This document shows positions 2 to 50,372 of a stretch of DNA of 63,845 nucleotides, one piece after another. The notes under the pieces are model-generated. The model saw only the letters and a list, made by a program, of their open reading frames with translations. It had not been told where the DNA came from and did not search any database. Every line of letters starts with the position of its first letter. Position 1 is the first letter of the stretch. Made by a program: the position numbers and the translations under genes. Source of the stretch: an uncultured Saprospiraceae bacterium (GTDB lineage: Bacteria; Bacteroidota; Bacteroidia; Chitinophagales; Saprospiraceae); NCBI GenBank assembly GCA_964403985.1, contig CAYOIL010000001.1, forward strand, positions 1 to 63,845, read 5' to 3'.

Positions 2-75
2 TGGTCCCACAAGGGCTCGAACCTTGGACCCCCTGATTATGAGTCAGGTGCTCTAACCAACTGAGCTATGGGACC
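2..75 (-). tRNA. tRNA with CAU anticodon (elongator tRNA-Met, or tRNA-Ile2 if the wobble C is lysidinylated)
   Basis: The reverse complement reads GGTCCCATAGCTCAGTTGGTTAGAGCACCTGACTCATAATCAGGGGGTCCAAGGTTCGAGCCCTTGTGGGACCA. It has a 7-bp acceptor stem GGTCCCA/TGGGACC, a D-loop AGCTCAGTTGGTTAGAGC, an anticodon loop CTCATAA and a T-loop GGTTCGAGCC. Confidence 0.9.
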
Positions 76-18176: not shown

Positions 18177-21128
18177 TTAATCAGTTACTTTAATAGGAGC
18201 AACATAATCTTCTAACGAATTATAAATTACAGACTGTATCCTAGGACGGTAATTCTTTTTTCCAAATTTATTGTTTTCCATAGTAGGATACGTTCTGTTA
18301 CTTAACATAACATAAACGATATTATGTTCTGGGTCTACAAAAGTACAAGTTCCTGTAAAACCTAAATGACCAAATGTTGAAACAGAAGCAAATTCACTCA
18401 TATTCTCATATTTTGACAAATCAAGTTCTTTCATATCGAAACCTACACCGCGGCGAGTAGAATATTGATATCTACTTGTAAATTCAAGAACAGTCTGAGG
18501 AGACATATATTCTTTACCTCCATAATATCCTCCATTTAATAGCATTTGCATTAATATAGCAAGGTCATGAGAGTTACTAAATAATCCAGCATGACCACTC
18601 ACACCACCCAACATTGCAGCTCCCATATCATGAACGTGTCCATGGATTACTTGATTCCTGAAATAGGAATCTTTTTCAGAGGGAACAATATTACTCAAGG
18701 CAAATTTTTCTTTTGGATTGTAACTGGTATATCGCATGCCAAGAGGTTGATAAAAGTTATGATTTGCATAAGCATCTAGTGTCATCCCACTCTGTGCCTC
18801 TACTACTTTCATCATAAAATAAAAACCAATATCGCTGTATTTGTATTTTTTATTTTCACGTAGATCAGAAACTAGAATCCGACTCCATACAGAGTCTGGA
18901 TAGTCTGACCTTAAATATAGGTTATTGGCCACCTCAACATTAAATGAATCGGTTCTTACTTTCCTGTAATATTTGTCTAGTACTTTTCTTTTTTTAGAAA
19001 GAGGGTCAATCGTATTTTTATAAAACGGAATCCAAGAAGCTAGGCCAGCATGATGTGTCATCATTTCTCGAATTGTCTGTGTTTTTTTATTTGTTGTATC
19101 AACTTGAGGCATTATGCCTAGAAGTGTTCCATCAATATCAAGTTTTCCTTGATCTTTCAGTCGCATGATAGAAACTGTAGAAGCGGCAATTTTGGTAATT
19201 GAGGCAAGGTCATAAATATCATTAATTTTTACTTCCTTTTTTCCATCGTATGTATGATTTCCATAGGCTTTATGCCACACGATTTTTCCGTCTTTAGCAA
19301 TAAGAACTTGACAACCTGGGGCTGCTTTCTTTTTGATCATCTCCTCTACAATTTCATCTATTTTCCTTAGGGAGTCCATACTCATACCTACTTCAATCGG
19401 TTGTACATACCCTAGTCGACCAATCCCTGTACGTTGAATTCCTGTTCCGTATTTAAATTTTCCAGAACTTACAGGTAGTCTACCACGTATATCTGCTGCC
19501 CCAAAAATGGCTTGAGCAGTTCGATCTTGCATGATGGAGTCATCAGTGTAAGCGACAACTATTTCATCATGTTCTTGGAAATATGTCAACGCATATGGAG
19601 AACCGAATACCACCAAAATCACATTTGTTTCAGCAGATAATTGATTTATAAATGTTCTTGTTTTGCTAGAAACACCGAATTGATTTTTCTGTAATTTATT
19701 CATGTCATGAATAGAGACAATTACTCGATCATATTTTTTTAATTTTTCAATTGTTCCATTAACTCCAAGAGTCGTGAAATCTTTATTTGTTTGAAAGTGG
19801 TCGAATTTTGCATAGCCATCAAGTCGAGTTTGAAAATCAGTTTTTGAGATCGTATTTATCGAAAGGCTAGCGTAAGAAAAAGAATCAATATTTACGAAAG
19901 GTATTAAGTTGTCAGAATCAGCAACCAAAGTGATTGCTTCGGCAAGAAGTCTACTTTTGAGACTTAACCCTTTTGGCGTGACAAGGTCTTTAGTAATTTC
20001 ATTCAACATGATTCTAGGTCTATAATTCAGCCCGAGCTCATATTTTTTTCTTAAAATTCTCGATACACTTTCATCGATTTGACCTTCTTGAATTATTCCA
20101 TCATCAACATATTTTTTGATGGCGTCAATCGCTACTTTTGTATCTCTTGGCAAACAAATAATGTCATTTCCTGCAAGGATCGCTTCTGCCTCTGCAACTC
20201 CAGGAGGAAAATGTCTTGTGACCCCTTCCATCTCCATCGCATCGGTAATTATTATGCCATTAAAACCAATGCTGTCTCTTAATACATTTTTTATTGTGTA
20301 TTCAGAAAGTGTTGTTGGACGGTTTTTTCTATTGTCAAAAACAGGAACATTTAAATGTGCAATCATCATACTACTAATCCCTTTATCTGATAAATATTTA
20401 AAAGGATATAACTCTAAGCTGTCAAGTCTTTTTCTGCCGAAATTAAGTACAGGAAGACCATAATGACTGTCTACATCTGTATCTCCATGTCCGGGAAAAT
20501 GTTTTGCGCAAGCTAATACGCCAGCATCTTCCATTCCACGTGCGTATTGAAATGATTTAGAGGCAACATTGTCTTTGTCTTCTCCAAATGAACGATTGTT
20601 AATTACAGGGTTTGCAGGATTATTATTCACATCTACTACTGGCGCAAAGTTTAAGTGAATTCCTATTCTTTTCAAGTCATAAGCTACCTGACGACCCATT
20701 TCATAAATCAATTTATCATCGCTGATTGCACCTAAAGTTAATTGTCTTGGATAACTAACAATGTCTTTTTTGAATCGCATTCCTAGACCCCATTCGCCAT
20801 CTATTGCTACAATCAAAGGAATGTCAGCTAAACCTTGATAAATATTAGTTAATTCTGCTTGTTTTACTGGAGTTCCTTGAAAAAAGCATAAAGATCCAAC
20901 TTTATAATCTTTAACTAATTTTTTAACATGGTCAATATGATCTTGCCCTTTGTTCGAATGAGCCCGAACCATAATCAGCTGACCTATTTTTTCTTCTAGA
21001 GTCATCCCTCCTAGCTTTTCACTAACCCATGCCTCTTTGGGGTCGATCATTGCGATGGGATCAACTTGAGCTTTTGGGCCTTGAGCCCATAAAAAAAGCA
21101 CTATAACTGATAAAATATAGTTTCTCAT
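18177..21128 (-). CDS. Fusion of a GH3 beta-N-acetylhexosaminidase (NagZ-like) with a serine-hydrolase/beta-lactamase-fold domain
   Basis: The N-terminal half carries KHFPGHGDTDVDSH and ITDAMEM (GH3). The C-terminal half carries SITK (SxxK) in a class C beta-lactamase/esterase-like domain. A signal peptide is present. Confidence 0.85.
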   Translation of the reverse strand: MRNYILSVIVLFLWAQGPKAQVDPIAMIDPKEAWVSEKLGGMTLEEKIGQLIMVRAHSNKGQDHIDHVKKLVKDYKVGSLCFFQGTPVKQAELTNIYQGLADIPLIVAIDGEWGLGMRFKKDIVSYPRQLTLGAISDDKLIYEMGRQVAYDLKRIGIHLNFAPVVDVNNNPANPVINNRSFGEDKDNVASKSFQYARGMEDAGVLACAKHFPGHGDTDVDSHYGLPVLNFGRKRLDSLELYPFKYLSDKGISSMMIAHLNVPVFDNRKNRPTTLSEYTIKNVLRDSIGFNGIIITDAMEMEGVTRHFPPGVAEAEAILAGNDIICLPRDTKVAIDAIKKYVDDGIIQEGQIDESVSRILRKKYELGLNYRPRIMLNEITKDLVTPKGLSLKSRLLAEAITLVADSDNLIPFVNIDSFSYASLSINTISKTDFQTRLDGYAKFDHFQTNKDFTTLGVNGTIEKLKKYDRVIVSIHDMNKLQKNQFGVSSKTRTFINQLSAETNVILVVFGSPYALTYFQEHDEIVVAYTDDSIMQDRTAQAIFGAADIRGRLPVSSGKFKYGTGIQRTGIGRLGYVQPIEVGMSMDSLRKIDEIVEEMIKKKAAPGCQVLIAKDGKIVWHKAYGNHTYDGKKEVKINDIYDLASITKIAASTVSIMRLKDQGKLDIDGTLLGIMPQVDTTNKKTQTIREMMTHHAGLASWIPFYKNTIDPLSKKRKVLDKYYRKVRTDSFNVEVANNLYLRSDYPDSVWSRILVSDLRENKKYKYSDIGFYFMMKVVEAQSGMTLDAYANHNFYQPLGMRYTSYNPKEKFALSNIVPSEKDSYFRNQVIHGHVHDMGAAMLGGVSGHAGLFSNSHDLAILMQMLLNGGYYGGKEYMSPQTVLEFTSRYQYSTRRGVGFDMKELDLSKYENMSEFASVSTFGHLGFTGTCTFVDPEHNIVYVMLSNRTYPTMENNKFGKKNYRPRIQSVIYNSLEDYVAPIKVTD

Positions 21129-23038
21129 TTATTTATTTTTTCTTGCAAGGAAGGGTCAAGCTGAATCGCTTTATTGTGATTGAATTGACCACTTTCTTCG
21201 TCTCCATTTATATAATAAGCATTCCCTAAATTGTAGTATGCAAAAGCTTCATTTGGGCGAAGTTTAACTGCTTCTTCAAAATATTTTATTGCTTCATTCT
21301 TTTTTCCTCCCATGCCGTTACTTACAGCTAAAAGTCTGACCGTTTCGTAATCCTTAGGATTTAAATTATAAGCTTGTTGTAAATATGATAGGGCCGCGTT
21401 TAAATCATTTTTCTTTTCACCAAAATATCGGCCACCATCTCGATAAGCGATATGCATATTTATCAAACATTGGGCATGTACAGGGTTTATTTTTAGTAAA
21501 TTGTTATAACTCTTAATGGATCTGTCATACAGATTCATATACTGATAATTATTACCCATTATCAAGTACGCATTAGAATACCTGGGATGAAGGTTTAATG
21601 CCTTTTCCAAGTAACTATTCGACAATTCAAGCATTGTTTTTTGTTCTTCTTTATTTTTAATTTTGGCTCCTTTCGTTGATAAAGCACCTGCTGCTCCATG
21701 CAAGGCTTTCGCGCTATTGTTTGATGTTTTTACATCTGTTGTTAACAAGGTGAAATTATCTTTCCATACAAATGATCGGCTGATTGTTTTTATAGAAAAT
21801 AATAGACAAGTTATTCCTATAAGTCCTATTATAATGGGGCTTGCGCTACGCTTGCCCAAAAGGCTTTTGATAAGAAGGACTAATGCAAAAAAGAATCCAA
21901 AAGAAGGTAGAAATAGAAAGCGCTCACTTATATTTGTTCCTATATTGAATGGAATATTTGACATTAAAAACAAGAACCCAAAGTAGAAGATTAATCCATA
22001 TGCCCACGCGCTTCGTTTTAGCAAACCTAAAATAGCTAAAACACCTCCGCCCGCATACAGAATCATCGAAAGAATAACGCCAAAATCATTGAAAGACTTA
22101 ATACTAAAATGATAGGGATAATAATCCGAAGTTAATGGATGTGGAAATACTAATAATTGAATGTACTTTCCCAAATTGAAAATAATTGATGCCCACTTTT
22201 CTGACGAATTAAAAGACATTAAAGTTCCATCAACATATTTCAAAAATGGATTATTCATTAATTCCATACTTTGTTCGGCAATTGCTCCACTTAAAACACC
22301 TTGTCGAGCAATAAGAAATAGAACTGATGTTATACTTAATAAACCAGCTCCTAAAAATAGCTTTGCTCTCTGTTCGTCATTTTTATAAAAAAAGAATACT
22401 GTCAATGGAATAATCAAAACAAAGACTAATGCGTGTTCTTTAGAAAAATAGCAAATGAGAATGGATAAAAAAGCGAGTATATAGTTTTTGATATTTAGCT
22501 TTTGGGTAAATAGAATAACCATTGAAAGGATGCCGAAAAGGCCAACCATAATTTCATCTCTTCCTTTCACATTAGCAACAACTTCAGAATGAATGGGATG
22601 ACAAGTAAATAAAAGGCTTATGACAAGAGCAAGGACTTTATGGTGTTCTTTAAACCGAGTTCTGCTTAAAATTTCTTTAGTAAAAACATAGAGAAGTAAA
22701 CAGAGTATTGCATAAAGAAGCGTATTGATAAGGTGACTCATATAGGCTTTTTGGCCCCATAATGATTGTTCTATTGCAAAAGTTACGAGAGAAGCAGGCC
22801 TATACCGACCACCTTGTACAAGCGTTTCTTTTCCTTCAACTTTGAAAAAGCCGTAAAATGTATCTTTAGTAAATAAACTAGGAATTCCTTTGACTCCTTG
22901 TGTAACAAACTGGTTGTCAGTAAAAACGATCGCATCATCTTGCGCATAATTAAAGCCAATAGAGGGACAATACAGCAAAAAAGCTAGTATCCCAATAAGC
23001 AATAAATGAGCTCTGGAGTTATTTGTTATTTCTTTCAA
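21125..23038 (-). CDS. TMTC-like GT-C glycosyltransferase (DUF1736-type polytopic domain) with C-terminal TPR repeats
   Basis: The first-loop motif FNYAQDDAIVFTDNQF and the RYRPASLVTFAIE block are followed by about 10 TM spans and C-terminal TPRs (NAYLIMGNNY, AFAYYNLGNAYY). The stop overlaps the next gene start by 4 nt (ATGA). Confidence 0.7.
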   Translation of the reverse strand: MKEITNNSRAHLLLIGILAFLLYCPSIGFNYAQDDAIVFTDNQFVTQGVKGIPSLFTKDTFYGFFKVEGKETLVQGGRYRPASLVTFAIEQSLWGQKAYMSHLINTLLYAILCLLLYVFTKEILSRTRFKEHHKVLALVISLLFTCHPIHSEVVANVKGRDEIMVGLFGILSMVILFTQKLNIKNYILAFLSILICYFSKEHALVFVLIIPLTVFFFYKNDEQRAKLFLGAGLLSITSVLFLIARQGVLSGAIAEQSMELMNNPFLKYVDGTLMSFNSSEKWASIIFNLGKYIQLLVFPHPLTSDYYPYHFSIKSFNDFGVILSMILYAGGGVLAILGLLKRSAWAYGLIFYFGFLFLMSNIPFNIGTNISERFLFLPSFGFFFALVLLIKSLLGKRSASPIIIGLIGITCLLFSIKTISRSFVWKDNFTLLTTDVKTSNNSAKALHGAAGALSTKGAKIKNKEEQKTMLELSNSYLEKALNLHPRYSNAYLIMGNNYQYMNLYDRSIKSYNNLLKINPVHAQCLINMHIAYRDGGRYFGEKKNDLNAALSYLQQAYNLNPKDYETVRLLAVSNGMGGKKNEAIKYFEEAVKLRPNEAFAYYNLGNAYYINGDEESGQFNHNKAIQLDPSLQEKINK

Positions 23039-24309: not shown

Positions 24310-25098
24310 ATGCATACTACTAAAATCGCAATTATAGGTTGTGGAAACCTAGGGTCGGCCATTTTAAATGGCTTACTTAGTAATGAAAAAGTAAAACCAG
24401 AGAACCTTACTGCAACAAGAAGAAATACTAAAGACTTAGAACATTTTCGAAAAAAAGGCGTACACATAACAAGTGATAATGCTGAGGCGATAAGAAATTC
24501 AGAAATTATAATTGTTGGGCTTAAACCGTATAAGATTGTTCAAAACTTAACAAAGAATAAATCTGTATTTAAAGAAGACCATATTGTTATTTCTTTAGCT
24601 ACTGCGATTTCTATTGAACAAATCGAAAAAGCAATAGAAGCAAATGTTCAAGTATTTAGAGCAATGCCAAATACAGCTGCAGAGGTTGGTGTTTCAATGA
24701 ACTGTATTTGTACCAATACTAACAATCAAAAAACGATCGACAAGGTAATTGAGTGTTTTAATTCGGTAGGAGAAACAATTGTAATAAATGAAGAATTAAT
24801 GGATTCGGCAACAGTATTGGGTGCATGTGGTATTGCTTATGTTCTTAGATTTATTCGTGCAATGATACAAGGGGGAATAGAAATAGGGTTTGATGCAAAA
24901 ACGGCAAGCAATATTGCTACACAAACAGTTAAAGGTGCGGCAGAATTATTGATCCAAAGAAATCAACATCCAGAATATGAAATTGATAAAGTAACGACAC
25001 CAAAAGGGTGTACTATTGCCGGCTTAAATGAAATGGAACACAATGGATTTAGTTCTGCTTTAATAAAAGGAATTTTAACGTCTCATAATAAAATTTAA
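24310..25098 (+). CDS. proC: Pyrroline-5-carboxylate reductase
   Basis: Rossmann IAIIGCGNLGSA, MPNTAAEVG, and the C-terminal VTTPKGCTIAGL motif. Confidence 0.92.
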   Translation: MHTTKIAIIGCGNLGSAILNGLLSNEKVKPENLTATRRNTKDLEHFRKKGVHITSDNAEAIRNSEIIIVGLKPYKIVQNLTKNKSVFKEDHIVISLATAISIEQIEKAIEANVQVFRAMPNTAAEVGVSMNCICTNTNNQKTIDKVIECFNSVGETIVINEELMDSATVLGACGIAYVLRFIRAMIQGGIEIGFDAKTASNIATQTVKGAAELLIQRNQHPEYEIDKVTTPKGCTIAGLNEMEHNGFSSALIKGILTSHNKI

Positions 25099-26600
25099 AA
25101 GCTAAATTTTCTGTCTAACATTGTTCCTATTTTTAAATTGCCAAGAGAGATTTTTTTAAATTCACTGTACTTATTTATTAGATCTTCTTTAAATTTTTTG
25201 TCTTTGTATATAAAGACTTCTTTTTTTAATTGACCGATTTTTATTGCTTGTAAATAATAGGGGTTTTCTCTCAACATTTTTGAAATAATTAATTCTATTT
25301 CATTGATCTTACTTGGTTCTGTATAGTTGATATAACAACTATAGTAGGCTTGGTTTTCTTTAAACTGAGGTTGAATAAAGAAATAATGAATTAAATTTGA
25401 TTCATGTAGTTTTTTTACAATCTGATTGATATGTTCAAGGGCAAGTTTTTCACCAACTAAATCGCTTGTAATATTTCCTCTACCCATAAATTCTAAAGCA
25501 GGAAGACTATCAGTTATTGCAACAACTTTTACAATGTCGTGAGTATTATATCTATATAATCCACCACCAGTTGTAATTAGTACTGTATATTTTTCTCCAA
25601 TTTTTAATTCATGGCTTCGGAAACAATTACCTGAACGATCAAGAAATTCATAAAAGTGTGAGTGATACGAAAGGTAATTGTGCTTATTAAAAGGAGTTGT
25701 AACAACTCCCTCTGTTAAAAGTAAGCCTTTAGAATGAATAGGAATTCCTCCTGCAATTTTTTCCAATTCGTTTAGCCAGATGCTTGCACTTGAATCGGTC
25801 CAACAACTTATTACTTTACATTTAGGAAATAGAACTTTTAAATTAACTTCGTTAAATTTTTCAGGCAGACGATTTGTCTTTAGTTCAGCATAATTATTTT
25901 TTAAAACAGAAAATAATTGGATTAAGAAACTAGGTGACCATATCGAAATCAAACTTAGATTTTTGGTGTTTATTAATTGTCTCCAAGTTTCTATAAAAAA
26001 CTCGTCGCTGGATGTAAATTTATTTGGTTTAATATTTACAGCTCGAATAAATCCATATAAAAACTTTATTGTCTTGGTTAAATATTCAGTATCATCTTCT
26101 ATACCTATTCTTATCCCCGCTTCGCTAAAGCGATTTTCTTTTAATGCGGGGGACAAACTCCAATATGCTTTTCCAGAAAATACCCCGGGATAATTTTTGT
26201 TCATTGTATGAATCCATGGAGCAAAAGCTTTATTAAATTCATTTTTTAGATCTTGAGTATATGGTATCAATTTGGAAGCGGAAGAACTACCTGAGGTTTC
26301 TTCAAAGAATAAAATGTCATCTGAAAATAATATATTCCTATCACCTTTTGCTATTGTATTTATATACGAGCTTATTTTTTCATATTCACTAATAATAGGG
26401 ACTTTCTCTTTGAAATCAACATATGATTTAATTTCACTGAAGTTAAATTTTATTCCATATTTGCTTGTTTTGTTTTTATTAATATAGAATAATAACTTCT
26501 GTTGTTGAATTGATGCTGAGGTAGAAAATTGCGAATGGAAATCTTTAAAATCCCTCTTTAAAGAGAGATGCCAAAGTTTATTTAGTAATTTACTTAACAT
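25095..26600 (-). CDS. GH3 family (auxin-responsive-promoter-type) acyl-adenylating amido ligase homolog
   Basis: About 500 aa with a GH3-like N-terminus (QQQKLLFYINKNKTSKYG...FKEKVPIISYE) and a phosphate-binding-like ETSGSSSASKLIPYT. The start overlaps the upstream stop by 1 nt (TAATG). Confidence 0.7.
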   Translation of the reverse strand: MLSKLLNKLWHLSLKRDFKDFHSQFSTSASIQQQKLLFYINKNKTSKYGIKFNFSEIKSYVDFKEKVPIISEYEKISSYINTIAKGDRNILFSDDILFFEETSGSSSASKLIPYTQDLKNEFNKAFAPWIHTMNKNYPGVFSGKAYWSLSPALKENRFSEAGIRIGIEDDTEYLTKTIKFLYGFIRAVNIKPNKFTSSDEFFIETWRQLINTKNLSLISIWSPSFLIQLFSVLKNNYAELKTNRLPEKFNEVNLKVLFPKCKVISCWTDSSASIWLNELEKIAGGIPIHSKGLLLTEGVVTTPFNKHNYLSYHSHFYEFLDRSGNCFRSHELKIGEKYTVLITTGGGLYRYNTHDIVKVVAITDSLPALEFMGRGNITSDLVGEKLALEHINQIVKKLHESNLIHYFFIQPQFKENQAYYSCYINYTEPSKINEIELIISKMLRENPYYLQAIKIGQLKKEVFIYKDKKFKEDLINKYSEFKKISLGNLKIGTMLDRKFSF

Positions 26601-27334
26601 TAAAATAATGGATTTTCTAAACCATCAATTAAATATTTTTTACCGCTTCTAATCATATTGTCTACACTTATTTCAGTAAGGCATACTAATTCATCACCAT
26701 TATAAAATCCTGGGTTTTTTTCTAGAAAGAATGCTGCAAACGTACTTCTTTTATTAAAAGATGCTTCTGCTAACTCTTTATTTAATTCACCAATTTTCTC
26801 TTTAAATTGTATAACCCCTTTTTCTATTTTATATTTTTCTCCATAAAATAGATCGGAACATCTTTCGGCGATAGATTGATAAAGAGGATCTTTAGTCCCT
26901 TCATGTGATGGGAAATAGTCAGAAAAGAATAATGGCAAATACATATACGTTCTATGACCTTTTGTTAATAAATACCAATATAATTTCTTAGAGGATGAAT
27001 GGTGTAAAAATGTTCCTACGGTTCTACACCAAGATTGCATCATAATTTGAGTGCCCCAAAATTCAGGGTCAATTATTGTATCTCCACTAAATACAATATT
27101 GTATTCATCTGTTCCACTGTTTTGGGGGTTTATTGCATACGTTGTAAATCCATAAATTATATTTTCTAATGTAAAAATTCCAACGTATTGCTTGGCTAAC
27201 AAATCCTTTTCAACGTTTTCTCTATTTACATGATTGTAATTATTTGACATCAATTCATACATTCTGTCAAAATCCAATAATCCAAAATCTTCTTTCTTTA
27301 CTAAACAGTACTCTAATTCATTTTTCATATCCAA
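26600..27334 (-). CDS. Hypothetical 244-aa protein (possibly a GNAT-like acyltransferase fold)
   Basis: Embedded in the operon by overlaps at both ends. I could confirm no diagnostic motif. Confidence 0.5.
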   Translation of the reverse strand: MDMKNELEYCLVKKEDFGLLDFDRMYELMSNNYNHVNRENVEKDLLAKQYVGIFTLENIIYGFTTYAINPQNSGTDEYNIVFSGDTIIDPEFWGTQIMMQSWCRTVGTFLHHSSSKKLYWYLLTKGHRTYMYLPLFFSDYFPSHEGTKDPLYQSIAERCSDLFYGEKYKIEKGVIQFKEKIGELNKELAEASFNKRSTFAAFFLEKNPGFYNGDELVCLTEISVDNMIRSGKKYLIDGLENPLF

Positions 27335-28395
27335 AATTCAATGTCTTTAACGATAGGTTTTGGTTTGTTTTTAGTTGCTGGATTTTCTGCATGATCTCTT
27401 AAGGATTCAATATATATATGCATTGCATCACATTGAGTTGATCTATACTCTGTTTCTTTAAATTGTTGAATATTTTTTCCGTGAAGATCCATTATCCATA
27501 CGTCCTGATCTATTACTTTCCTAGTGTACCAATTTAATCCTAGTTTCGCTACAGGCGTCATTAATCCAAATTTATAGGATATTAAAGTATAGACCATTGT
27601 ATCAAATTCACCTCTTGGTGTGCAGGTACTAGAAATAATAAAACCTCTTTCATTTTCTCCGAATATATAATCTACTCGAGTATTATTTGGCATATAAAAA
27701 TTGTCCGTATGCTTCATCGGCAAGTTCTTCGGATTTATTAAAAAATTAGAAAAACCGATGCTATCGTTTGGCTGATCGTATGTTACTAACACACTATCAT
27801 TTGTACGTTCCACTTTTGCTTCTATGTGAACTTGTTTACGATCTCTAAACCAGCCTTTATGTACAAAAACAGTATGAGGAACATCCATAAAGTTTTCAAC
27901 GAGATCTGTTACATTATTTTTAAAAGCCGTTTTCATATAATAATAGTTCCAACCATGTTCTTCCATAACGGGCATTAGAAATATTTCTCGAGAAGGGGTT
28001 TTATTTTCACCCATCCAAACCCAGATTAATCCATACTTCGACTCTATAGGAAAAGACTCTACTTTTTTATTAGGGATTCTTTCTACATATGGTCCTTCGC
28101 TTGGAATAGACGTGCATTGTCCTTCTTCATTATAAACCCATCCGTGATAAGGACAAACAATACATTTATCAATTATTTTACCTTTACTTAAAGGCGCATT
28201 TCTATGATTGCACCTGTCTAGTATAGCGGCGTATTCTCCATCTTCATTTAGCCATACTGCAATCGGAATATCAAAAACAATTCGTTGTAACGGTTTGTTT
28301 TTTTTGAATTCTTTTACCTCCCCGATAGCGTACCAATAATTTACTAGATCACCACTTTTTTCGTACATCTTTGTTCTAAAATTCGCTTGACTCAT
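27325..28395 (-). CDS. Rieske [2Fe-2S] non-heme iron oxygenase (PAO/KshA-like alpha subunit type)
   Basis: Rieske CNH-x16-CPYH (CNHRNAPLSKGKIIDKCIVCPYHGW) and a mononuclear iron motif ENFMDVPHTVFVH (E-x3-D-x2-H-x4-H). Confidence 0.88.
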   Translation of the reverse strand: MSQANFRTKMYEKSGDLVNYWYAIGEVKEFKKNKPLQRIVFDIPIAVWLNEDGEYAAILDRCNHRNAPLSKGKIIDKCIVCPYHGWVYNEEGQCTSIPSEGPYVERIPNKKVESFPIESKYGLIWVWMGENKTPSREIFLMPVMEEHGWNYYYMKTAFKNNVTDLVENFMDVPHTVFVHKGWFRDRKQVHIEAKVERTNDSVLVTYDQPNDSIGFSNFLINPKNLPMKHTDNFYMPNNTRVDYIFGENERGFIISSTCTPRGEFDTMVYTLISYKFGLMTPVAKLGLNWYTRKVIDQDVWIMDLHGKNIQQFKETEYRSTQCDAMHIYIESLRDHAENPATKNKPKPIVKDIEFWI

Positions 28396-31156
28396 TCTCT
28401 GATTTTTGAATAATAGAATAATATTTATTTAAATCTTGTAGGTCAATCCATTCTTCTTCTCCATTGAACCATTTAATATTAAGTTTAACTTCTTCTATTA
28501 AATTGTTTTGGGCTCCAAGCCCAAAAATTATTCTAGAGTCTTCCATTGCCATAAACCCATTGACTAATTTTTGTTCTTGATATTGTTGCATTTGTTTTCC
28601 GTTTTCCTTGTAATATAAAATTACTTGAGTGCCTACAGCATCAGTTGTTGTATTTTCCCCATTTCCTTTTATATCAAAGCCTAACCAATTCTTTCCAGAT
28701 ACATTATTTTTATAAAGAAAAGGTGATCCGAATTGATTGGTAATTAATAAGTCATCATCTCCATCATTATCAAAATCGGCTGCAACAATTCCTCTTGTAT
28801 TTGCTTCGTGATCGAAACCTAAAAGTTCTCCATAATCTTTAAAATAATTTCCATTATGATTTAGCATTAATCCATCTTTTTCGTCTTCATAAATGCACAT
28901 GCCTCTTATGTCTGCCCACTTATCAGCATAGCTATGAATTTCTGGTCCTGTCCTTGCAATTTGTGCTTGATAATACCAAAAATCCATTCTCTCGTCATAG
29001 ATCTTATCCCAAGAATCCCCCACCATTCCATTCGCTTGAATAATGTCTTTCCATCCATCTAAGTTTAAATCAGCAAAACTTGCTCCCCAGCCGAAACGCT
29101 TTGTATTTAATGCATTCAAGTTAGTAGCCGATTCCTTCATTTTTAATTTCTCTCCTTCTGAATAATTCATCCATAATAAACTTCCTTCTGCCTGCATCGC
29201 ATGATGTACATTGCTTACGTAAACATCTTCTTTTCCATTATTGTCTAAGTCACCAACACTAGAGTTCATTCCTTTATAAGTATCCATCCCCAAATCACCA
29301 TAGAATTTACCTTCAATTTTTTCGAACTTCTGTCCTTCTTTGTTTAAATAAATATCATCTGTGCCAAAATCATTTGAAACATAAATATCCGTATATCCAT
29401 CATCGTTGAAATCAGATGTACCAATTGATAATGTCCATCTCGTTTCTTTTAAAGTAGAAATTTCTGAAGGAACTTCTGAAAAGATATTTTCATCTCCTGT
29501 ATTTACAAAGAGTTGATTCATTCCACCATTATTAGCATTGTGCCAACTTTCATGCATAAAGTGAAACATTCTACGGTCTCCTTCATATTGTGGTTCCGGT
29601 AGATCAAAAATATTTAATGGTGTTGGGTTATTATAATCTGGCAAGTTTCTTAACAATGTATTTCCTAAAATAAAATCTAATTTTCCATCTTTATTATAGT
29701 CAAAAGCATTTGCTGACAAGCAAATTGTGTGACCTTCTAAAGCAGGAATTTTCTTTTCTTTAAATTCTAATTCACCAAGAGGAATTATAGTATTTTCAAA
29801 CAAGCGCGACTGTCCAAAACCGAATCCGACAAATAAATCTTTGTCCCCATCATTATCATAATCCATAAACATTGCAAAGCCAGGTAAACCATATGAAACA
29901 GGATCGTTTAGGTACTTTTCAAGATCGGGAATAGATCTTTTTTCAAAAGTAAAATCCCCAGTATTTATGTGTAGTTTTCCTCTCCACGCTGTTGATTTTA
30001 AGATTTGTGTCATAAATAGATCTTGGTCTCCATCTAAATCTATATCGGCTACCGCAGCAGCATCACCAACGGATATTACCCATTTTGCAACATGTGCAAC
30101 TCTCTTATCAACATCTTCAAGGACAGTACTTTTTTTATGAGATAATCCACTTATACTCTCATCTATTCTTTCCAGAGAAAAACCTTCAAGTATGGAATTT
30201 ATTCCTATAAATTGTGGTGTTTTAAAAGCATAAATAAATGGTAGAAAAAGCAGAAGAGCTACGACGTATCTAGGAATAATCTGTAAGCTGTTTTTTATCA
30301 TTTGGGGAAACCCATTTTTACTTAAATCAAGCCCAATAAAATATATATATCTTACCGCAGCAACCGTCATTCCTGCAAAAAAGAAAGTGTAATAACTTAA
30401 TTTCATATGGTAAATTAAATCCAATAAACCAATTGCACTTCCTGTAAATATTTGAGCCCATTTTCCTTTAGGACTTGTACCTGGATCAGTAATCATATAG
30501 AAAGTAAACAGATAAAAAGCAGGAGATGAAAGAGAGCTCATAAATAGCGTTTCCCAAGGAATAATATGCTCCATAATTTCTGCTCTGTAAATCGATTGAA
30601 GAGTAAAAACAAGGAGAAAACTTCCTATTAACCAGTTTCTGTTAATTTTAAAAACAAATAAAACTAAAGCACCTGTAACGACAAACCAGATCATCATAGA
30701 TGCAGTTGCTGCGCTACCATACCATTGATAACTAGGAGCTAAAGTAATGAGATCATCGGTAAATAAGATGCAAACAACGATTGCAAAAAGCGAAGGATTA
30801 AAATAATGTTTACCTTTTAATGTTATTAAATACTTAGAAATAATACAGATAAAAACAGGTATCCACAAATTGTGAAAAGCATAACTCCAGTTTAATATAA
30901 TCGCTAAGGAACAACAGGAAATCATAGCTGATAAAGGAAATACCTTACGCTTCTTGAATATACCATTTAGCACAACATCAAGTAAAGCACCAGCTCCAAT
31001 CAGTACAAATATTTGGACTGGTTTCCGGTCAAATCCTAAAAAGAAAATGCCTAAAAGCAAATAGAAAAATAACAATCCAAAAGCTCTCCATCTTACATCT
31101 TTAGCAGAAGGTAGTGCATATGAACCTGTCCAATTTTTTGGGTTAAAATTTATCAT
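28376..31156 (-). CDS. Fusion protein: N-terminal RnfD/NqrB-like polytopic membrane domain, seven FG-GAP/VCBS repeats and a C-terminal ASPIC/UnbV domain (CRTAC1-like)
   Basis: The first 310 aa or so are multi-TM and carry FYMITDPGTSPKGKWAQIFTGSAIGLL, resembling the FMATDPxTSP block of RnfD/NqrB. Seven Ca-binding-like DxDxDGxxD repeats follow (DIDLDGDQD, DYDNDGDKD, DYNKDGKLD, DFNDDGYTD, DLDNNGKED, DLNLDGWKD, DFDNDGDDD). The tail GTQVILYY...FGLG is UnbV-like. Confidence 0.7.
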   Translation of the reverse strand: MINFNPKNWTGSYALPSAKDVRWRAFGLLFFYLLLGIFFLGFDRKPVQIFVLIGAGALLDVVLNGIFKKRKVFPLSAMISCCSLAIILNWSYAFHNLWIPVFICIISKYLITLKGKHYFNPSLFAIVVCILFTDDLITLAPSYQWYGSAATASMMIWFVVTGALVLFVFKINRNWLIGSFLLVFTLQSIYRAEIMEHIIPWETLFMSSLSSPAFYLFTFYMITDPGTSPKGKWAQIFTGSAIGLLDLIYHMKLSYYTFFFAGMTVAAVRYIYFIGLDLSKNGFPQMIKNSLQIIPRYVVALLLFLPFIYAFKTPQFIGINSILEGFSLERIDESISGLSHKKSTVLEDVDKRVAHVAKWVISVGDAAAVADIDLDGDQDLFMTQILKSTAWRGKLHINTGDFTFEKRSIPDLEKYLNDPVSYGLPGFAMFMDYDNDGDKDLFVGFGFGQSRLFENTIIPLGELEFKEKKIPALEGHTICLSANAFDYNKDGKLDFILGNTLLRNLPDYNNPTPLNIFDLPEPQYEGDRRMFHFMHESWHNANNGGMNQLFVNTGDENIFSEVPSEISTLKETRWTLSIGTSDFNDDGYTDIYVSNDFGTDDIYLNKEGQKFEKIEGKFYGDLGMDTYKGMNSSVGDLDNNGKEDVYVSNVHHAMQAEGSLLWMNYSEGEKLKMKESATNLNALNTKRFGWGASFADLNLDGWKDIIQANGMVGDSWDKIYDERMDFWYYQAQIARTGPEIHSYADKWADIRGMCIYEDEKDGLMLNHNGNYFKDYGELLGFDHEANTRGIVAADFDNDGDDDLLITNQFGSPFLYKNNVSGKNWLGFDIKGNGENTTTDAVGTQVILYYKENGKQMQQYQEQKLVNGFMAMEDSRIIFGLGAQNNLIEEVKLNIKWFNGEEEWIDLQDLNKYYSIIQKSENESSEF

Positions 31157-31796
31157 AATTCAAGATGTATATGCTGAAGATAACAATTATTGCCAATATA
31201 AAAAGAAAATTGTTTCTCTTTGTTATTGAGTTTATCTTATCAAATTTTGGGTCATTGGAAGCAAACCAAATCGCTTTATCTCCCATAGTTTCCTTTCCTA
31301 CTAGTTTTCCGAATTCGAAGGCATAAAAGCTATCAGTTAATAGCGTTGTTGCCATTGTCAAAGCGTATATAATATAAAACCATGAAATTGATGATTTTGG
31401 GCTTAAAGCCCAAAAATTATAAGGCCCAAAAATCAGATATATCGTAAAACATAAAATTAGGGTTGCTGAAGAAATATTAAAGAATACTCCATGTTTAGTC
31501 CTCCAGTTTTTGGATATATACATCATATAAGATTGGATGATGGTACGGAATAAAATAATAGCAATTATCAATAATAGTAATTTACGCCAGGGTTGTTCAT
31601 GCCAATAAAGTATGAGAAAAGAAATCGGAAAAATACCGTAGAGATAAAGAGCATAACCAAGCCAAAATGTTTTTGGGATACTTATTTTACCTCCTATATT
31701 CCCAGACTTATTCTGTCCTTTACGGTAATTTAAAACAATTATTATCCACGCAATCGTAATGGCAATGACTATAGATAAAGAAAGTAAGTTGTTCAT
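31143..31796 (-). CDS. Polytopic membrane protein of unknown function (first gene of the five-gene operon)
   Basis: About six hydrophobic spans. The stop overlaps the next gene start by 14 nt. Confidence 0.55.
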   Translation of the reverse strand: MNNLLSLSIVIAITIAWIIIVLNYRKGQNKSGNIGGKISIPKTFWLGYALYLYGIFPISFLILYWHEQPWRKLLLLIIAIILFRTIIQSYMMYISKNWRTKHGVFFNISSATLILCFTIYLIFGPYNFWALSPKSSISWFYIIYALTMATTLLTDSFYAFEFGKLVGKETMGDKAIWFASNDPKFDKINSITKRNNFLFILAIIVIFSIYILNYDKF

Positions 31797-31802
31797 TTTT
31801 TA

Positions 31803-31810
31803 TACCTTTG
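31803..31810 (+). promoter_or_regulatory. Candidate Bacteroidota -7 promoter box TACCTTTG for the riboswitch-btuB transcript
   Basis: Matches TAnnTTTG and sits immediately upstream of the riboswitch P1 5' strand. It is only 7 nt from the divergent start codon at 31796. Confidence 0.35.
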
Positions 31811-31976
31811 AGGTGCATAAAAGTACACATTCAATCTCACAAATTGGATCGGAATCCGGTTAAAATCCGGAGCTGTCCCGCAGCTGTAAGTTTCACATAA
31901 GTTTATATCGTTCGCCACTGCGAAAGCGGGAAGGTGATATAAATGAAACAAGCCAGAAGACCTACTTTATGTGCTC
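31811..31976 (+). promoter_or_regulatory. Cobalamin (B12) riboswitch
   Basis: Conserved core GGTTAAAATCCGGAGCTGTCCCGCAGCTGTAAG, GCCACTGCGAAAGCGGGAAGG and the B12 box AGCCAGAAGACCT. P1 pairs GCATAAAAGTA with TACTTTATGTGC. The element is directly upstream of a TonB-dependent receptor. Confidence 0.88.
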
Positions 31977-32018
31977 AAAATGAGCGGACGTCAACTTTCG
32001 GTGTGAAAAGACAAGACA

Positions 32019-33842
32019 ATGAAGAAGATTATGCTATGCATAGCCATAGGGCTATTTTTTATGGGGGCTTATGCCCAAAGCGATTCATTGCTTATTGATA
32101 CAGTTGTTATCAATGGTGCACCATATAGTTCTTCTCATGTTTCAGAAATTTCTCCAACATCAACTACCGAAAGTTTAGCAACTAGCCTTCAGTCAAAAGA
32201 AGCTGTTTATATAAAGAATTATGGAGGAATGAGTTTGGCAACACTTTCCCTACGTGGAAGTAGCGCGTCTCAAACAGGAGTATATTGGAACAACCTTTCA
32301 ATAAGTAATAATATGCTTGGCTTGCTAGATCTTTCATTAATCCCTAGTGGGTTTAATGAAGAAACTAAGTTGGTTTATGGAAGTGAATCTACATCATATG
32401 GTAGTGGTAATATAGGAGGAGGAATATATCTGGAGAATAAACCCACCAGTAAATTTACTTTTTCAAGTAGTATTGGAAGCTTTAATAATTATTCAACAAC
32501 AGCAATTGTAGGAATTGATAGAAAAATAAAATCTTCACTAAAGGTAAATATTCAACGATTTAAAAATGATTATCCCTATAAATTATCTAATGGTGAAGAG
32601 CGAAAATTAATTAATGGAGACGGAGGGCAAGCACATTTGATGTATAACTCTTTTCTAAGTGTAGGAAAAAACAAATTTGGATTTAATTATTGGGGAAGCG
32701 TTGCAAGAAGAAATATTCCTTTTACAACGCGACAAACTAGTGGAAATGATTCAACTGCCGATAGTAATAATCGACTAAATTTTAACTTTAAAAGGGTTAA
32801 CAAAAAGTCAATTATTGAATTGAATTCTGGTTATTTTATTAATTCAAATCAATTTTTTCAAACGGATTTAATTAATACAAATGTTGTTCGATCATTCGAA
32901 AATAGACTTATCTATAAGCAAATATTTAATAAGTATCAATACACGTTGGGTTTAAATCAAAGTGTAGCAAATGCAGACTCGAAAAATTATACGAATACTC
33001 AACAACAATCTCGAATAGCAGTTTTTGGTCAAGCTTCATTGAGGACAAATCTTGTAAATATAGATATGAGATTTAGACAGGAAATGATTGATTTAAATGT
33101 TGTTCCTTTTATTCCTGAAATTTCTATTTCAAAAACGATTCTTAAATCATATACATTTGGAATAAAAGGAAATAGAGTCTACAGAAACCCAACACTTAAT
33201 GATTTGTTTTGGGTTCCAGGAGGCAACCCAGAATTGTTGGCTGAAATAGGATGGGCAGGAGAGGTTTTTAATTCAATAGAATGGGACAGTGATAAGTGGG
33301 GTTTGTTTTTCGGACTGACAGCATATAGCCGATTGGTTGATAATTGGATTCAATGGACGTTGACTGAAGGACAAGTTTTTTTCAGACCATTGAATGTGAA
33401 TAAAGTCTGGAGTAGAGGAGTTGAATTAAAAGCAAGATCTAGCTATATAATAAATGAGAAATGGAATTTAAATAATTCTTTATCCTATGGTTTTAATCGT
33501 TCAACATATCAAGAATCTTTATCCATTCCTATAGTAAATGCAGGAGATCAATTATTTTATACTCCTATTCATCAATTGAATAATGTTTTTGTTTTGTCAC
33601 ATAAAAGCACGGCATTATCTTATACGAATAGATATTTTAGCGAGTCAAGAGGTATTAGTGAAAACATTGGAAAATATGCAATAACTGATTTATTAATATC
33701 CCAACAAATTAATATAAAGAAGCACTATTTAAAACTAAGTTTTTCAATAAACAATATAACAAATACATCTTACCGAATAATTGAATTTCGACCAATGCCT
33801 GGCAGGAATTATTTATTAAACCTTACATACAAATTAAATTAA
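32019..33842 (+). CDS. btuB: TonB-dependent outer-membrane receptor, B12-riboswitch controlled (BtuB-like)
   Basis: Signal peptide, plug domain (VYIKNYGGMSLATLSLRGSSASQTGVYWNN), a long beta-barrel, and the riboswitch context. Confidence 0.85.
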   Translation: MKKIMLCIAIGLFFMGAYAQSDSLLIDTVVINGAPYSSSHVSEISPTSTTESLATSLQSKEAVYIKNYGGMSLATLSLRGSSASQTGVYWNNLSISNNMLGLLDLSLIPSGFNEETKLVYGSESTSYGSGNIGGGIYLENKPTSKFTFSSSIGSFNNYSTTAIVGIDRKIKSSLKVNIQRFKNDYPYKLSNGEERKLINGDGGQAHLMYNSFLSVGKNKFGFNYWGSVARRNIPFTTRQTSGNDSTADSNNRLNFNFKRVNKKSIIELNSGYFINSNQFFQTDLINTNVVRSFENRLIYKQIFNKYQYTLGLNQSVANADSKNYTNTQQQSRIAVFGQASLRTNLVNIDMRFRQEMIDLNVVPFIPEISISKTILKSYTFGIKGNRVYRNPTLNDLFWVPGGNPELLAEIGWAGEVFNSIEWDSDKWGLFFGLTAYSRLVDNWIQWTLTEGQVFFRPLNVNKVWSRGVELKARSSYIINEKWNLNNSLSYGFNRSTYQESLSIPIVNAGDQLFYTPIHQLNNVFVLSHKSTALSYTNRYFSESRGISENIGKYAITDLLISQQINIKKHYLKLSFSINNITNTSYRIIEFRPMPGRNYLLNLTYKLN

Positions 33843-34775
33843 ATGAAATTATTTTACACTTTTATTTTATCGATTTCTTTTCTTATTGTTAATGCTCAAA
33901 TTAGTTTTGAAACGTTTGGCTTAGAAATGGAAACATTTGACAACAATAGTGATATTGGGTTTTCTGAAGGAGATATAACGTTGCCTAATTCTTTTAATTC
34001 TACATATAGTTTTTTTACAGGTTTTGCTCTATCTACAATGACAGATACAATTACTGAAGGTTTTTTAAACCAATACAGTGTTATTTCTGGAGTAGGTGCA
34101 AATAATACGATGACTTATGCAATTGGATATTTAACTGCAGATAATAGTATATATGTAAATAATGGGTCTCTATTAGAAAGCTTGCAGATAAATAACACAA
34201 CATTTGCTGGATTAAGTATCCAAAATGGAGATGGATTTGCAAAAAAATTTGGTGGGGAAACAGGAGACGATCCGGACTTTTTCCTTTTAACTATGAAGTT
34301 TTATGATAATAATATTCCGACAGGAGATTCAATAGAATTCTATTTGGCAGATTATAGATTTGATGATAACGAGTTAGATTATATAATTAAAGACTGGACG
34401 ACAATTGATCTATCAGAAATAAATTCTTCTTATGACGAAATTAAATTGATTTTATCTTCCTCAGATATTGGTGCTTTTGGTATGAATACACCGGCATATA
34501 TAGCTATTGATGAATTACAGTTTTTACCTTCAAGTTCAATCGAAACAGTAGATGATAATATTCATATTTATCCTAATCCTGCTATAGATTTATTAAATGT
34601 AGAAGTAAATTCTATTTCTCATTTTTACCTTTTTAATTCTATTGGCGAATCTGTTCTTAATGGAGAATTAAGTGGTGAATCGAAAATAAACATTAGTCAC
34701 CTAATTAAAGGGGTATATTTTTTAAGAATTGAAAACGAAGATGGAAGGACTATTAAAACTATTATAAAGCAGTAA
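33843..34775 (+). CDS. DUF4465-like protein with a type A T9SS C-terminal sorting domain (candidate surface B12-capture accessory)
   Basis: The start abuts the btuB stop (TAAATG). The block FFTGFALSTMTD...NQYSVISGVGANNTMTYAIGY resembles DUF4465. The C-terminus HIYPNPAIDLLNV...GVYFLRIENEDG...IIKQ is a Por/T9SS tail. Confidence 0.6.
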   Translation: MKLFYTFILSISFLIVNAQISFETFGLEMETFDNNSDIGFSEGDITLPNSFNSTYSFFTGFALSTMTDTITEGFLNQYSVISGVGANNTMTYAIGYLTADNSIYVNNGSLLESLQINNTTFAGLSIQNGDGFAKKFGGETGDDPDFFLLTMKFYDNNIPTGDSIEFYLADYRFDDNELDYIIKDWTTIDLSEINSSYDEIKLILSSSDIGAFGMNTPAYIAIDELQFLPSSSIETVDDNIHIYPNPAIDLLNVEVNSISHFYLFNSIGESVLNGELSGESKINISHLIKGVYFLRIENEDGRTIKTIIKQ

Positions 34776-49792: not shown

Positions 49793-50372
49793 AAGCATTC
49801 GAGTAATTAATGGGCAAGTAAGAAACCTAAAATATCATCAATCTAGAGTTGATAGGGCATATTTATTTTACGGTAAAAAGGATAAATTAAATTTACAATC
49901 TTTTATAAAGTCGTTTTCTATTCCTAGAGATGGCCTGTATAAATTGAGAATTTCTTATGATATAAAAAGTAATTCAGGTCTATCAAAAATAGAAGCATAT
50001 AAAGCAAAAGAGATTAATAGTTTAAAGTTAATTGAATTAAAGGAAGAAAGCTATATGCATAAATTCGAAGACCGTGAATTTATTAATTCTTTTTATGAAA
50101 AAAGGGGCAATGCGAGCGATGTATTGTTCTATAGAAATAATAAAATACTAGATACGTCATATTGTAATATTGCCTTCTTTAACGGCAAAGAGTGGCTTAC
50201 GCCCAAAATACCTTTATTAAAAGGAACGATGAGAGAACAATTAATTAATAAAGGAATTATTGTTGAAAAAGATATTCCTCTAGAAGACATTCAAAACTTC
50301 AAAAAAGCAAGGTTATTTAATGCAATGATTTTGTGGTCCGATAAAAAAGAGCTGTCAAATTTTTATACCTAG
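49776..50372 (+). CDS. pabC: Aminotransferase class IV family protein (aminodeoxychorismate lyase-like)
   Basis: Overlaps pabB by 17 nt. It is a fold-type IV-like small protein (NLKYHQSRV..., DTSYCNIAF). The assignment rests partly on context. Confidence 0.6.
   Translation: MSHLFESIRVINGQVRNLKYHQSRVDRAYLFYGKKDKLNLQSFIKSFSIPRDGLYKLRISYDIKSNSGLSKIEAYKAKEINSLKLIELKEESYMHKFEDREFINSFYEKRGNASDVLFYRNNKILDTSYCNIAFFNGKEWLTPKIPLLKGTMREQLINKGIIVEKDIPLEDIQNFKKARLFNAMILWSDKKELSNFYT

Follow-up and report, generated by a model that had tools for sequence, protein, structure and literature searches.

What does an operon do that joins a GH3-family amide-forming ligase, a Rieske oxygenase and a membrane protein with an RnfD-like domain? 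This question is raised by a locus of an uncultured Saprospiraceae bacterium, located at positions 25095-31796 (minus strand) of a 63,845-nucleotide stretch of DNA (GenBank assembly GCA_964403985.1, contig CAYOIL010000001.1, positions 1 to 63,845; hereinafter the window). An earlier note, made from the sequence of the window alone, had described the locus as a five-gene unit. The results presented here indicate that these five genes, together with a sixth one found elsewhere in the window, form a conserved module of diderm bacteria in which known enzyme families appear in a new, fixed combination, a GH3-centered amide-forming operon that was not found described in the literature searched. The function that we favor, with a probability that falls somewhat short of even, is that the module, in association with the membrane, makes an amide-linked compound of the envelope and modifies it oxidatively; this compound is probably N-acylated, for instance an aminolipid or an N-acyl amide.

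The locus consists of five consecutive open reading frames (ORFs) on the minus strand. In the order of transcription, these are gene 1, which encodes a 217-aa polytopic membrane protein (31143-31796); gene 2, a 926-aa fusion of an RnfD-like domain with FG-GAP repeats and an UnbV_ASPIC domain (28376-31156); gene 3, the alpha subunit of a Rieske non-heme-iron oxygenase, 356 aa (27325-28395); gene 4, a 244-aa protein with a predicted GNAT fold (26600-27334); and gene 5, a 501-aa GH3-family adenylating acyl-acid amido synthetase (25095-26600). With the starts of the longest ORFs, adjacent genes overlap, from gene 1 to gene 5, by 14, 20, 10 and 1 nt, which is what the earlier note had reported and what the ORF coordinates and the junction letters bear out (TTATGATAAATTTTAA between genes 1 and 2; TAATG between genes 4 and 5). 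The junction sequences give genes 1, 2 and 5 a unique ATG start each. In gene 4, the alternative start ATG 27328 yields the canonical 4-nt ATGA overlap and agrees with P0001, a 242-aa protein that is 99% identical to the 244-aa protein; in gene 3, the alternative start ATG 28368 replaces the 20-nt overlap with a 7-nt gap. The genes are tightly packed under every choice of starts, leaving no space for internal promoters, and a hairpin scan detects no terminator-like hairpin on the minus strand inside the operon. The scan for sigma-70 promoters and terminators, not designed for Bacteroidota promoters, was uninformative, with promoter-like sites fewer than in shuffled sequences. The five overlapping genes are one operon.

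The same genes travel together in other genomes. A scan seeded with the 244-aa protein, with one genome per species, yielded 131 confirmed relatives, of which the best 80 loci were analyzed (phmmer, ORF filter, BLAST clustering). Among the 42 loci that extend at least 8 kb upstream and at least 3 kb downstream, a GH3 gene is present in 41, a Rieske gene in 36, a gene for a tandem-GNAT protein of about 366 aa also in 36, and the genes for the fusion protein and the 217-aa protein in 28 each. The complementary metagenome scan, seeded with the fusion protein, retrieved 401 confirmed relatives by motifs of the DTYKGMN and QAEGSLLW type; the best 80 loci were kept, and these match the query from the RnfD-like N-terminus onward. 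Of these, 24 extend at least 6 kb in both directions, and in them the counts are 22 for each of the Rieske, GNAT and GH3 genes, 21 for the tandem GNAT and 17 for the small membrane protein, with all six genes found in 14 of the 24 and the module split in two loci of this set (L093 and L124). Altogether, the module genes are grouped in this way in about 120 independent loci that come from many phyla, which is far beyond chance. Given that the association holds in both search directions, the six genes represent a module rather than a chance juxtaposition. Thus, co-occurrence in related genomes, the check proposed for the five-gene unit, came out positive both ways, and the unit itself is real as an operon but incomplete, in that the tandem-GNAT gene 26 kb away belongs to it too. 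All ORFs of 162 loci were also clustered, and representatives of the clusters were annotated.

The carriers of the module belong to more than ten bacterial phyla, all of them diderm. Among the Bacteroidota, they include Saprospiraceae, Cytophagales, Flavobacteriales and Chitinophagales, with the cultured Segetibacter aerophilus and Marivirga aurantiaca; Verrucomicrobiota are represented by Oceaniferula spumae and Haloferula, among others, and Pseudomonadota by Lysobacterales and Chitinimonas. Further carriers come from Omnitrophota, Leptospirales, Fibrobacteria, Phycisphaerae, Elusimicrobia, Acidobacteriota and Eisenbacteria. Two more were found via homologues of the sixth gene, both with other gene orders: the cyanobacterium Nodularia sphaerocarpa encodes all six genes, and the betaproteobacterium Ottowia testudinis encodes the Rieske, GNAT, GH3 and tandem-GNAT proteins, with flanking desaturases. 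Public annotations of the homologues are generic (e.g., "hypothetical protein", "FG-GAP-like repeat-containing protein" or "GH3 auxin-responsive promoter family protein"), and the Rieske homologues are labeled "aromatic ring-hydroxylating dioxygenase subunit alpha" by the Prokaryotic Genome Annotation Pipeline (PGAP).

At the center of the module is the GH3 protein. A Pfam search with the gene 5 product identifies the GH3 N domain (PF03321) with a score of 129.5 bits against a cutoff of 23.6 and GH3_M (PF23571) with 58.2 bits; no GH3_C match at E <= 0.1 was returned for the window protein, and this domain is found in the homologues from Segetibacter and from a Thermoanaerobaculia locus (L075) and, faintly, in that from Nodularia. 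All three nucleotide-binding motifs, defined as the P-loop-like S/T-S-G-S/T-S...K, T-E-G and Y-R-x-x-x-D, are present (ETSGSSSASKLIPYT, LLLTEG and GLYRYNTHD, respectively), and the core residues of the patterns TSGSS..K.IP, TEG and LYRY..D are conserved across the cluster, in at least 95% of 58 homologues. The closest solved structures in the PDB are the plant enzymes GH3-1, JAR1 and GH3.15. The window protein shares with plant GH3 proteins (JAR1, GH3-1, GH3.12/PBS3) the family and the order of the GH3 N and M domains, but the similarity is limited to two stretches at E ~1e-15, the window protein is about 100 residues shorter, and it is encoded in a bacterial operon. The 3' end of the GH3 gene overlaps by 4 nt (25095-25098) with a convergent gene for a 262-aa protein (24310-25098, plus strand), which leaves no space for a terminator between the two; inspection of its sequence alone gives this protein the look of a pyrroline-5-carboxylate reductase.

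More than 7500 bacterial GH3 homologues are known, about 90% of them in Bacteroidota and with substrates unassigned (PMC12493201; reviewed in PMC12971839). The statement of the earlier note that none has an assigned substrate is outdated by OlsH from Singulisphaera acidiphila, the only characterized bacterial GH3, which ligates a fatty acid to ornithine in an ATP-dependent reaction and so makes N-acyl-ornithine, to which OlsI, an O-acyltransferase of the alpha/beta-hydrolase type, adds a second acyl chain (PMC12493201). The OlsH/OlsI system resembles the module in that a bacterial operon is built around a GH3 ATP-dependent amido synthetase with an acyltransferase and tailoring enzymes, and the nucleotide-binding motifs are shared; it differs in that the module has neither OlsI nor the methyltransferase OlsG and contains instead two GNATs, a Rieske oxygenase and two polytopic proteins. 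An identification of gene 5 as olsH was ruled out: its product reaches 44.4 bits with the OlsH equivalog model of NCBIfam (NF052613), the cutoff of which is 620, and the OlsI partner is missing, with no alpha/beta-hydrolase in the operon or among the recurrent neighbors in the 162 loci.

The 244-aa protein encoded by gene 4, upstream of GH3, has no significant match in Pfam and none in a PDB sequence search with its profile, and had been taken for an orphan without a recognizable motif. The family is nevertheless large: 210 homologues are found by word-indexed search, and an exhaustive search with a hidden Markov model detects 2060 representative homologues, 785 of these at E <= 1e-30. The family contains the invariant motifs FSGDT, WG and SKGHRT. 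A Foldseek search started with the AlphaFold2 model (pLDDT 92.7, built on 42 sequences) identifies AAC(2')-Ia, ElaA and many other GNATs with E 2.6e-5 and probability 1.0 over about 140 of the 244 residues, the rest being a helical insertion of about 80 residues. According to this model, the supposed orphan has the fold of GNAT acyltransferases; with a sequence identity of about 10%, this is an assignment at the level of the fold only, because the profile search of the PDB gave nothing.

The connection of this protein with GH3 comes from natural gene fusions. Of 65 loci, 51 have the 244-aa GNAT gene next to the GH3 gene (median gap, -4 nt). Three proteins from three different 50%-identity clusters and at least three lineages (P0284, P0289 and P0301) combine the two in a single chain, in all three cases with the GNAT as the N-terminal part and GH3 as the C-terminal part. 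The 742-aa P0284 is identical to a protein encoded in the Thermoanaerobaculia locus mentioned above (L075, 3653-5878). In this protein, residues 22-226 align with the 244-aa protein at 35% identity (E 2e-46) and residues 277-708 with GH3 at 33% identity (E 2e-88). The other two (788 aa and 726 aa, respectively) were found by the exhaustive search, and Pfam recognizes GH3 domains after the GNAT. These fusions imply that the two proteins act together, so that the 244-aa GNAT appears to be the functional partner of GH3.

The sixth gene of the module (51063-52154, minus strand) is the sole match in the window to the family that directly follows GH3 elsewhere. In most loci from the scan seeded with the 244-aa protein, this gene lies directly 3' of GH3, and the median gap is -4 nt both between the GNAT and GH3 genes and between the GH3 and tandem-GNAT genes. 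A search with the single sequence of the 377-aa ORF retrieves only the ORF itself and one relative; a profile derived from the homologues in the loci was needed, and this profile detects 134 homologues. In the closest relative of the window locus (L002, from the metagenome-assembled genome of an uncultured Saprospiraceae bacterium, with a fusion protein 84% identical to that of the window), the tandem-GNAT gene follows GH3 after 444 nt, and the gene for a VWA-domain protein is located downstream of it in the same direction (L002 10738-13047). The window has the same VWA gene, encoding a lipoprotein, beside its tandem-GNAT gene (52303-53445, plus strand). The order GH3-tandem GNAT-VWA in the relative suggests that a rearrangement separated the tandem-GNAT gene from the operon in the lineage of the window. 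Directly downstream of this gene, and overlapping its 3' end if a GTG start is used, is a 259-aa ORF (50369-51148, minus strand) that belongs to no Pfam family and has no homologue in the 162 loci; the lowest GC content of the window, 0.279, is found in the 50-52 kb region.

The 363-aa product of the sixth gene has no Pfam match above the threshold; weak GNAT matches are seen in both halves, and a PDB sequence search with the tandem-GNAT profile returns GNAT matches at E > 0.1 only. The AlphaFold2 model (pLDDT 87) is matched by Foldseek over its full length to the Eis-like structures 3n7z and 2i00 (E 8e-13) and superposes on N-myristoyltransferase with a TM-score of about 0.55. Judging from the model, the protein comprises two GNAT domains in one chain and adopts an N-myristoyltransferase/Eis-like fold. 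The predicted folds of the 363-aa and 244-aa GNATs thus superpose on known tandem proteins (N-myristoyltransferase, 3n7z/2i00) and on single GNATs (AAC(2')-Ia, ElaA), respectively, at a sequence identity of about 10%.

The Rieske oxygenase (gene 3), which is of the VanA/DdmC/KshA/SxtT type, would supply the oxidative step. Pfam identifies the Rieske domain (PF00355, 86 bits) and VanA_C (PF19112, 40.6 bits), and both metal motifs, CNH-x16-CPYH (of the CxH-x16-CxxH type) and E-x3-D-x2-H-x4-H (ENFMDVPHTVFVH), are retained in 60 homologues. The closest solved structures are SxtT, SxtDIOX, DdmC, NdmA and KshA, alpha3-type Rieske monooxygenases with which the protein shares the [2Fe-2S] motif, the mononuclear-iron motif and VanA_C; it differs from them in scoring far under the family cutoffs (the top NCBIfam match, the sterol demethylase SdmA, is at 120 bits against a cutoff of 600) and in that no cognate reductase or ferredoxin is encoded nearby. 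No such partner is encoded in the operon; an NDH-2-like flavoprotein is encoded inside the cluster in the Nodularia locus only (L082 15885-17246) and could be the missing reductase. The VanA_C domain, the PGAP label of the homologues and the precedent of plant GH3 proteins bring up a catabolic or detoxifying role, in which a VanA-like Rieske enzyme would attack an imported aromatic or fatty acid and GH3 would inactivate it via conjugation to an amino acid. We regard this as very unlikely, considering that there are no downstream genes for ring cleavage or beta-oxidation and no dedicated transporter, that the two GNATs and the conserved propeller protein would be left without a role, and that the carriers have very different lifestyles.

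The fusion protein encoded by gene 2 has a multidomain architecture. An RnfD-like transmembrane domain with a linker helix (aa 20-311; 30224-31099) is followed by a seven-blade FG-GAP beta-propeller (aa ~350-820; 28697-30109) and a C-terminal UnbV_ASPIC domain (aa 840-908; 28433-28639), all on the minus strand. The Pfam matches are NQR2_RnfD_RnfE (PF03116, 36.1 bits against a cutoff of 27.7, E 6e-9), FG-GAP_3 (PF13517, 111.6 bits, E 2.7e-32), FG-GAP (PF01839, 62.7 bits, E 2.7e-17) and UnbV_ASPIC (PF07593, 35.1 bits, E 1.2e-8), and with these, the GH3, Rieske, RnfD-like and FG-GAP/ASPIC assignments made previously from the sequence all stand above the Pfam gathering thresholds. The identity to homologues from other phyla is 41-84%, and between Bacteroidota, Verrucomicrobiota and Cyanobacteria it is 41-44% over about 920 residues, which is unusually high and leaves many positions invariant. 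The propeller contains seven DxDxDG-type calcium loops, and its invariant patches, HESWHNANNGG, DTYKGMN, SNVHH, QAEGSLLW, RFGWG and QANGMV, rich in His, Glu and Arg, look like a binding or active site. Proteins of the CRTAC1/ASPIC type similarly have an FG-GAP propeller with calcium loops followed by UnbV_ASPIC; what sets the window protein apart is the anchoring of the propeller to an RnfD-like membrane domain and the family-specific motifs DTYKGMN and QAEGSLLW.

The membrane domain of the fusion raises the question of whether the module is a redox device. A PDB sequence search with the whole fusion protein gives no match, whereas a profile of the N-terminal domain matches the RnfD chains 9eri_D (E 5e-7), 7zc6_D and 8ahx_D over the first four helices and the TDPxTSP region, and the NP and TDPxTSP motifs are invariant. 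The domain is therefore homologous to the polytopic domain of RnfD/NqrB and retains its NP and TDPxTSP motifs, but it differs in having one more transmembrane helix and in being joined to an FG-GAP/UnbV ectodomain of 615 residues. The threonine of S-G-A-T, the flavinylation motif of RnfD/NqrB, is not conserved: the corresponding stretch has the consensus YQWYGSAxxAW in 24-33 homologues, and neither Thr nor Ser is conserved behind G-S-A. Furthermore, neither the window operon nor any recurrent family of the 162 loci includes another Rnf/Nqr subunit, ApbE or ferredoxin. The lack of both the flavin-attachment threonine and the partner subunits identifies the protein as an RnfD-fold homologue and not a respiratory subunit, and membership in an Rnf/Nqr complex was rejected on these grounds; of the original designation "RnfD/NqrB-like", the fold and the homology hold, and the respiratory features do not. 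An ion-pumping Rnf/Nqr-like redox complex in which the large membrane protein passes electrons to the Rieske oxygenase would account for the above-threshold NQR2_RnfD_RnfE hit, the matched RnfD chains and a Rieske enzyme without a reductase in its operon, but the same absences, along with the joining of the domain to a large calcium-loop propeller instead, make it extremely improbable.

Hydropathy analysis finds 11 hydrophobic segments in the fusion protein, ten in the RnfD-like core and an extra one at 293-309. If the basic N-terminus is inside, the acidic propeller would probably face the periplasm, although this placement comes from a crude hydropathy count. The 217-aa product of gene 1 contains six hydrophobic segments and, in the first loop, a conserved motif G-G-K-x-S-x-P-K-x-x-W, and has no significant match in Pfam or NCBIfam. 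Homologues are encoded in 89 of the 162 loci, where their genes either adjoin that of the fusion protein or lie between those for the Rieske and GNAT proteins.

Another conceivable target of the module is an envelope macromolecule (termini of lipoproteins or other proteins, stem peptides of peptidoglycan, lipopolysaccharide or polysaccharide) that would be bound by the propeller and acylated or amidated. The resemblance of the tandem GNAT to N-myristoyltransferase, which acylates protein N-termini, and to Eis is compatible with such a role, and so are the diderm envelope of all carrier phyla and the FG-GAP/ASPIC propeller, a typical ligand- or glycan-binding module. However, GH3 and both GNATs have neither signal peptides nor transmembrane segments and so are expected to act in the cytoplasm on small precursors, and no glycosyltransferase, peptidoglycan or lipopolysaccharide gene recurs nearby in the 162 loci. 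A macromolecular target is accordingly considered quite unlikely.

Additional clues to the substrate come from the accessory genes. In the 162 loci, families of FA_desaturase are encoded in at least 62, SnoaL-like proteins in 28, AurF-like di-iron oxygenases in 26, OmpR/TPR regulators in 25, B12-binding radical-SAM proteins of the PhpK/BchE type in 21, PAP2 phosphatases in 17, FA_hydroxylase (top NCBIfam match OlsE) in 16 and MatE exporters in nine; START, lipocalin, Mpo1-like and LpxO/OlsC-like genes are single-case neighbors. For example, in Marivirga, two FA desaturases and a 556-aa B12-radical-SAM protein are encoded between the core genes (L048 5482-9999), and in Ottowia, an LpxO/OlsC-like Asp_Arg_Hydrox gene accompanies the flanking desaturases (L083 3351-12027). 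The matches of the accessory enzymes to NCBIfam models are all far below the thresholds (DesA, CrtW/CrtR, GntB, OlsE and PhpK-type) and do not settle the substrate class. This set of genes points to tailoring that depends on O2 and, for the most part, to hydrophobic substrates. The weak resemblance of one desaturase-like family to the arginine hydroxylase GntB keeps the set from being decisive.

Part of the same evidence can be read in favor of a small molecule that is soluble or secreted, for instance an amino acid-derived signal, a toxin-like amide or a hydroxamate-type chelator. In such a pathway, the oxygenases would modify an amino acid or amine, the GNATs would add short acyl groups, GH3 would form an amide in the manner of an NIS (nonribosomal peptide synthetase-independent siderophore) synthetase, and the membrane proteins would export or sense the product. 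The GntB-like family, the AurF-like oxygenases and the MatE exporters would fit, plant GH3 enzymes use small acids, and the closest solved relatives of the Rieske protein, SxtT/SxtDIOX, DdmC and NdmA, act on small molecules. Against this stand the two polytopic core proteins, the lipid-type neighbors (FA_hydroxylase, PAP2, START, Mpo1-like) and the conserved neighborhoods, where neither TonB receptors nor ABC importers, nonribosomal peptide or polyketide synthases or genes for precursor supply are recurrent; the TonB receptor that adjoins the operon in the window is under a cobalamin riboswitch and is linked to the module in the nearest relative only. A small-molecule product is, in our estimation, unlikely; if this is the product, the module would embody a new ligase-based biosynthetic logic.

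An amide-linked envelope compound is suggested by the conserved nucleotide-binding motifs of GH3 and by the precedent of OlsH, the only characterized bacterial GH3, which ligates fatty acids to ornithine (PMC12493201). The full-length superposition of the tandem GNAT on a long-chain acyl transferase, N-myristoyltransferase, the polytopic nature of two of the six core proteins and the recurrence of lipid-type accessory genes in related loci are all consistent with such a product. From these observations, we infer the substrate class and a possible order of reactions. GH3 would activate a hydrophobic carboxylic acid with ATP and join it to an amine or amino acid via an amide bond; the 244-aa GNAT, in physical contact with GH3, would deliver or acylate the amine partner; the tandem GNAT could then attach a further acyl group; and the Rieske enzyme would hydroxylate or otherwise oxidize the acyl chain or the head group. 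Other lineages might extend the oxidation with membrane desaturases, hydroxylases, AurF-like oxygenases and B12-radical-SAM methylases. Our inference for the role and sidedness of the two membrane proteins (the fusion, with its channel-like RnfD-fold domain and calcium-binding propeller, and the 217-aa protein) is that, at the inner membrane or in the periplasm, they either translocate the product or process it.

Several observations weigh against this assignment. Genes for an acyl carrier protein, a fatty-acid synthase or an acyl-CoA ligase are absent from the core, the window GH3 scores far under the OlsH model, the similarity of the tandem GNAT to N-myristoyltransferase is limited to the fold (TM-score 0.55, ~10% identity), and the periplasmic location of the propeller depends on the hydropathy count. 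The nearest solved relatives of the Rieske enzyme act on small polar or aromatic molecules, namely saxitoxin, dicamba and caffeine. As for the accessory genes, the window carries none of these families, including the lipid-type ones, in its 64 kb, and one member of the FA_desaturase group is the weak match to GntB; enzymes of the FA_desaturase family are not restricted to lipids, and AurF-like enzymes are known as arylamine N-oxygenases. The pathway envisaged in the earlier note, oxidation of a hydrophobic carboxylate followed by amide conjugation at the envelope, remains plausible, with the lipid-type genes of other loci as indirect support.

A broader version of the favored assignment would be a hitherto unrecognized pathway, spread across phyla, for a new class of envelope lipids with an amide linkage. 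In it, a GH3-GNAT complex would be combined with a repurposed RnfD-fold domain, joined to a calcium propeller that is catalytic or binds a ligand, and this membrane protein would process or translocate the lipids in a step of a new kind that faces the periplasm; this is a tentative proposal, with a probability well below even. If the product is indeed a membrane lipid, the module would reveal a widespread, overlooked lipid class in diderms of soils, waters and activated sludge. Regardless of the product, the module is a second well-delimited context for a bacterial GH3, with fixed partners, namely a pair of GNATs, one Rieske oxygenase and the two membrane proteins, and in it an RnfD-type membrane fold, fused to an unusually conserved propeller, is put to use outside respiratory complexes. 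The cultured carriers (Marivirga aurantiaca, Segetibacter aerophilus, Ottowia testudinis, Chitinimonas prasina or viridis, Oceaniferula spumae and Nodularia sphaerocarpa) and the natural GNAT-GH3 fusions make the question of the substrate directly testable. As the earlier note had supposed, there appears to be no described pathway with this gene set: no characterized cluster was matched, and a full-text search of the literature found no description of it, the one "GH3-like" match being to glycoside hydrolase family 3.

The divergent intergenic region upstream of gene 1 is filled by a cobalamin riboswitch (RF00174, 74 bits; 31803-31983, plus strand) that begins 7 nt from the gene 1 start codon and leads into genes for a TonB-dependent receptor (32019-33842, plus strand) and a 310-aa secreted protein (33843-34775, plus strand). 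With this layout, the first codons of gene 1 must contain the promoter of the riboswitch, and the riboswitch DNA must contain that of the operon, so that the 5' regions of the two transcripts are mutually antisense. Among eight loci searched with Rfam, the layout recurs in the nearest relative (L002 3418-3598) and is absent from the other seven. A siderophore cluster served by the TonB receptor was considered and rejected, given that the receptor is controlled by the B12 riboswitch and TonB receptors are not recurrent neighbors of the module; a functional link of the operon to B12 was likewise rejected, the window module being without a B12-radical-SAM gene.

On the other side of the operon, about 2 kb past the end of the GH3 gene, a 637-aa protein is encoded (21125-23038, minus strand) that consists of a polytopic N-terminal half, with no Pfam match for this membrane domain, and C-terminal TPR repeats. 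A tRNA gene (2-75, minus strand; RF00005, 73 bits) is located at the very start of the window.

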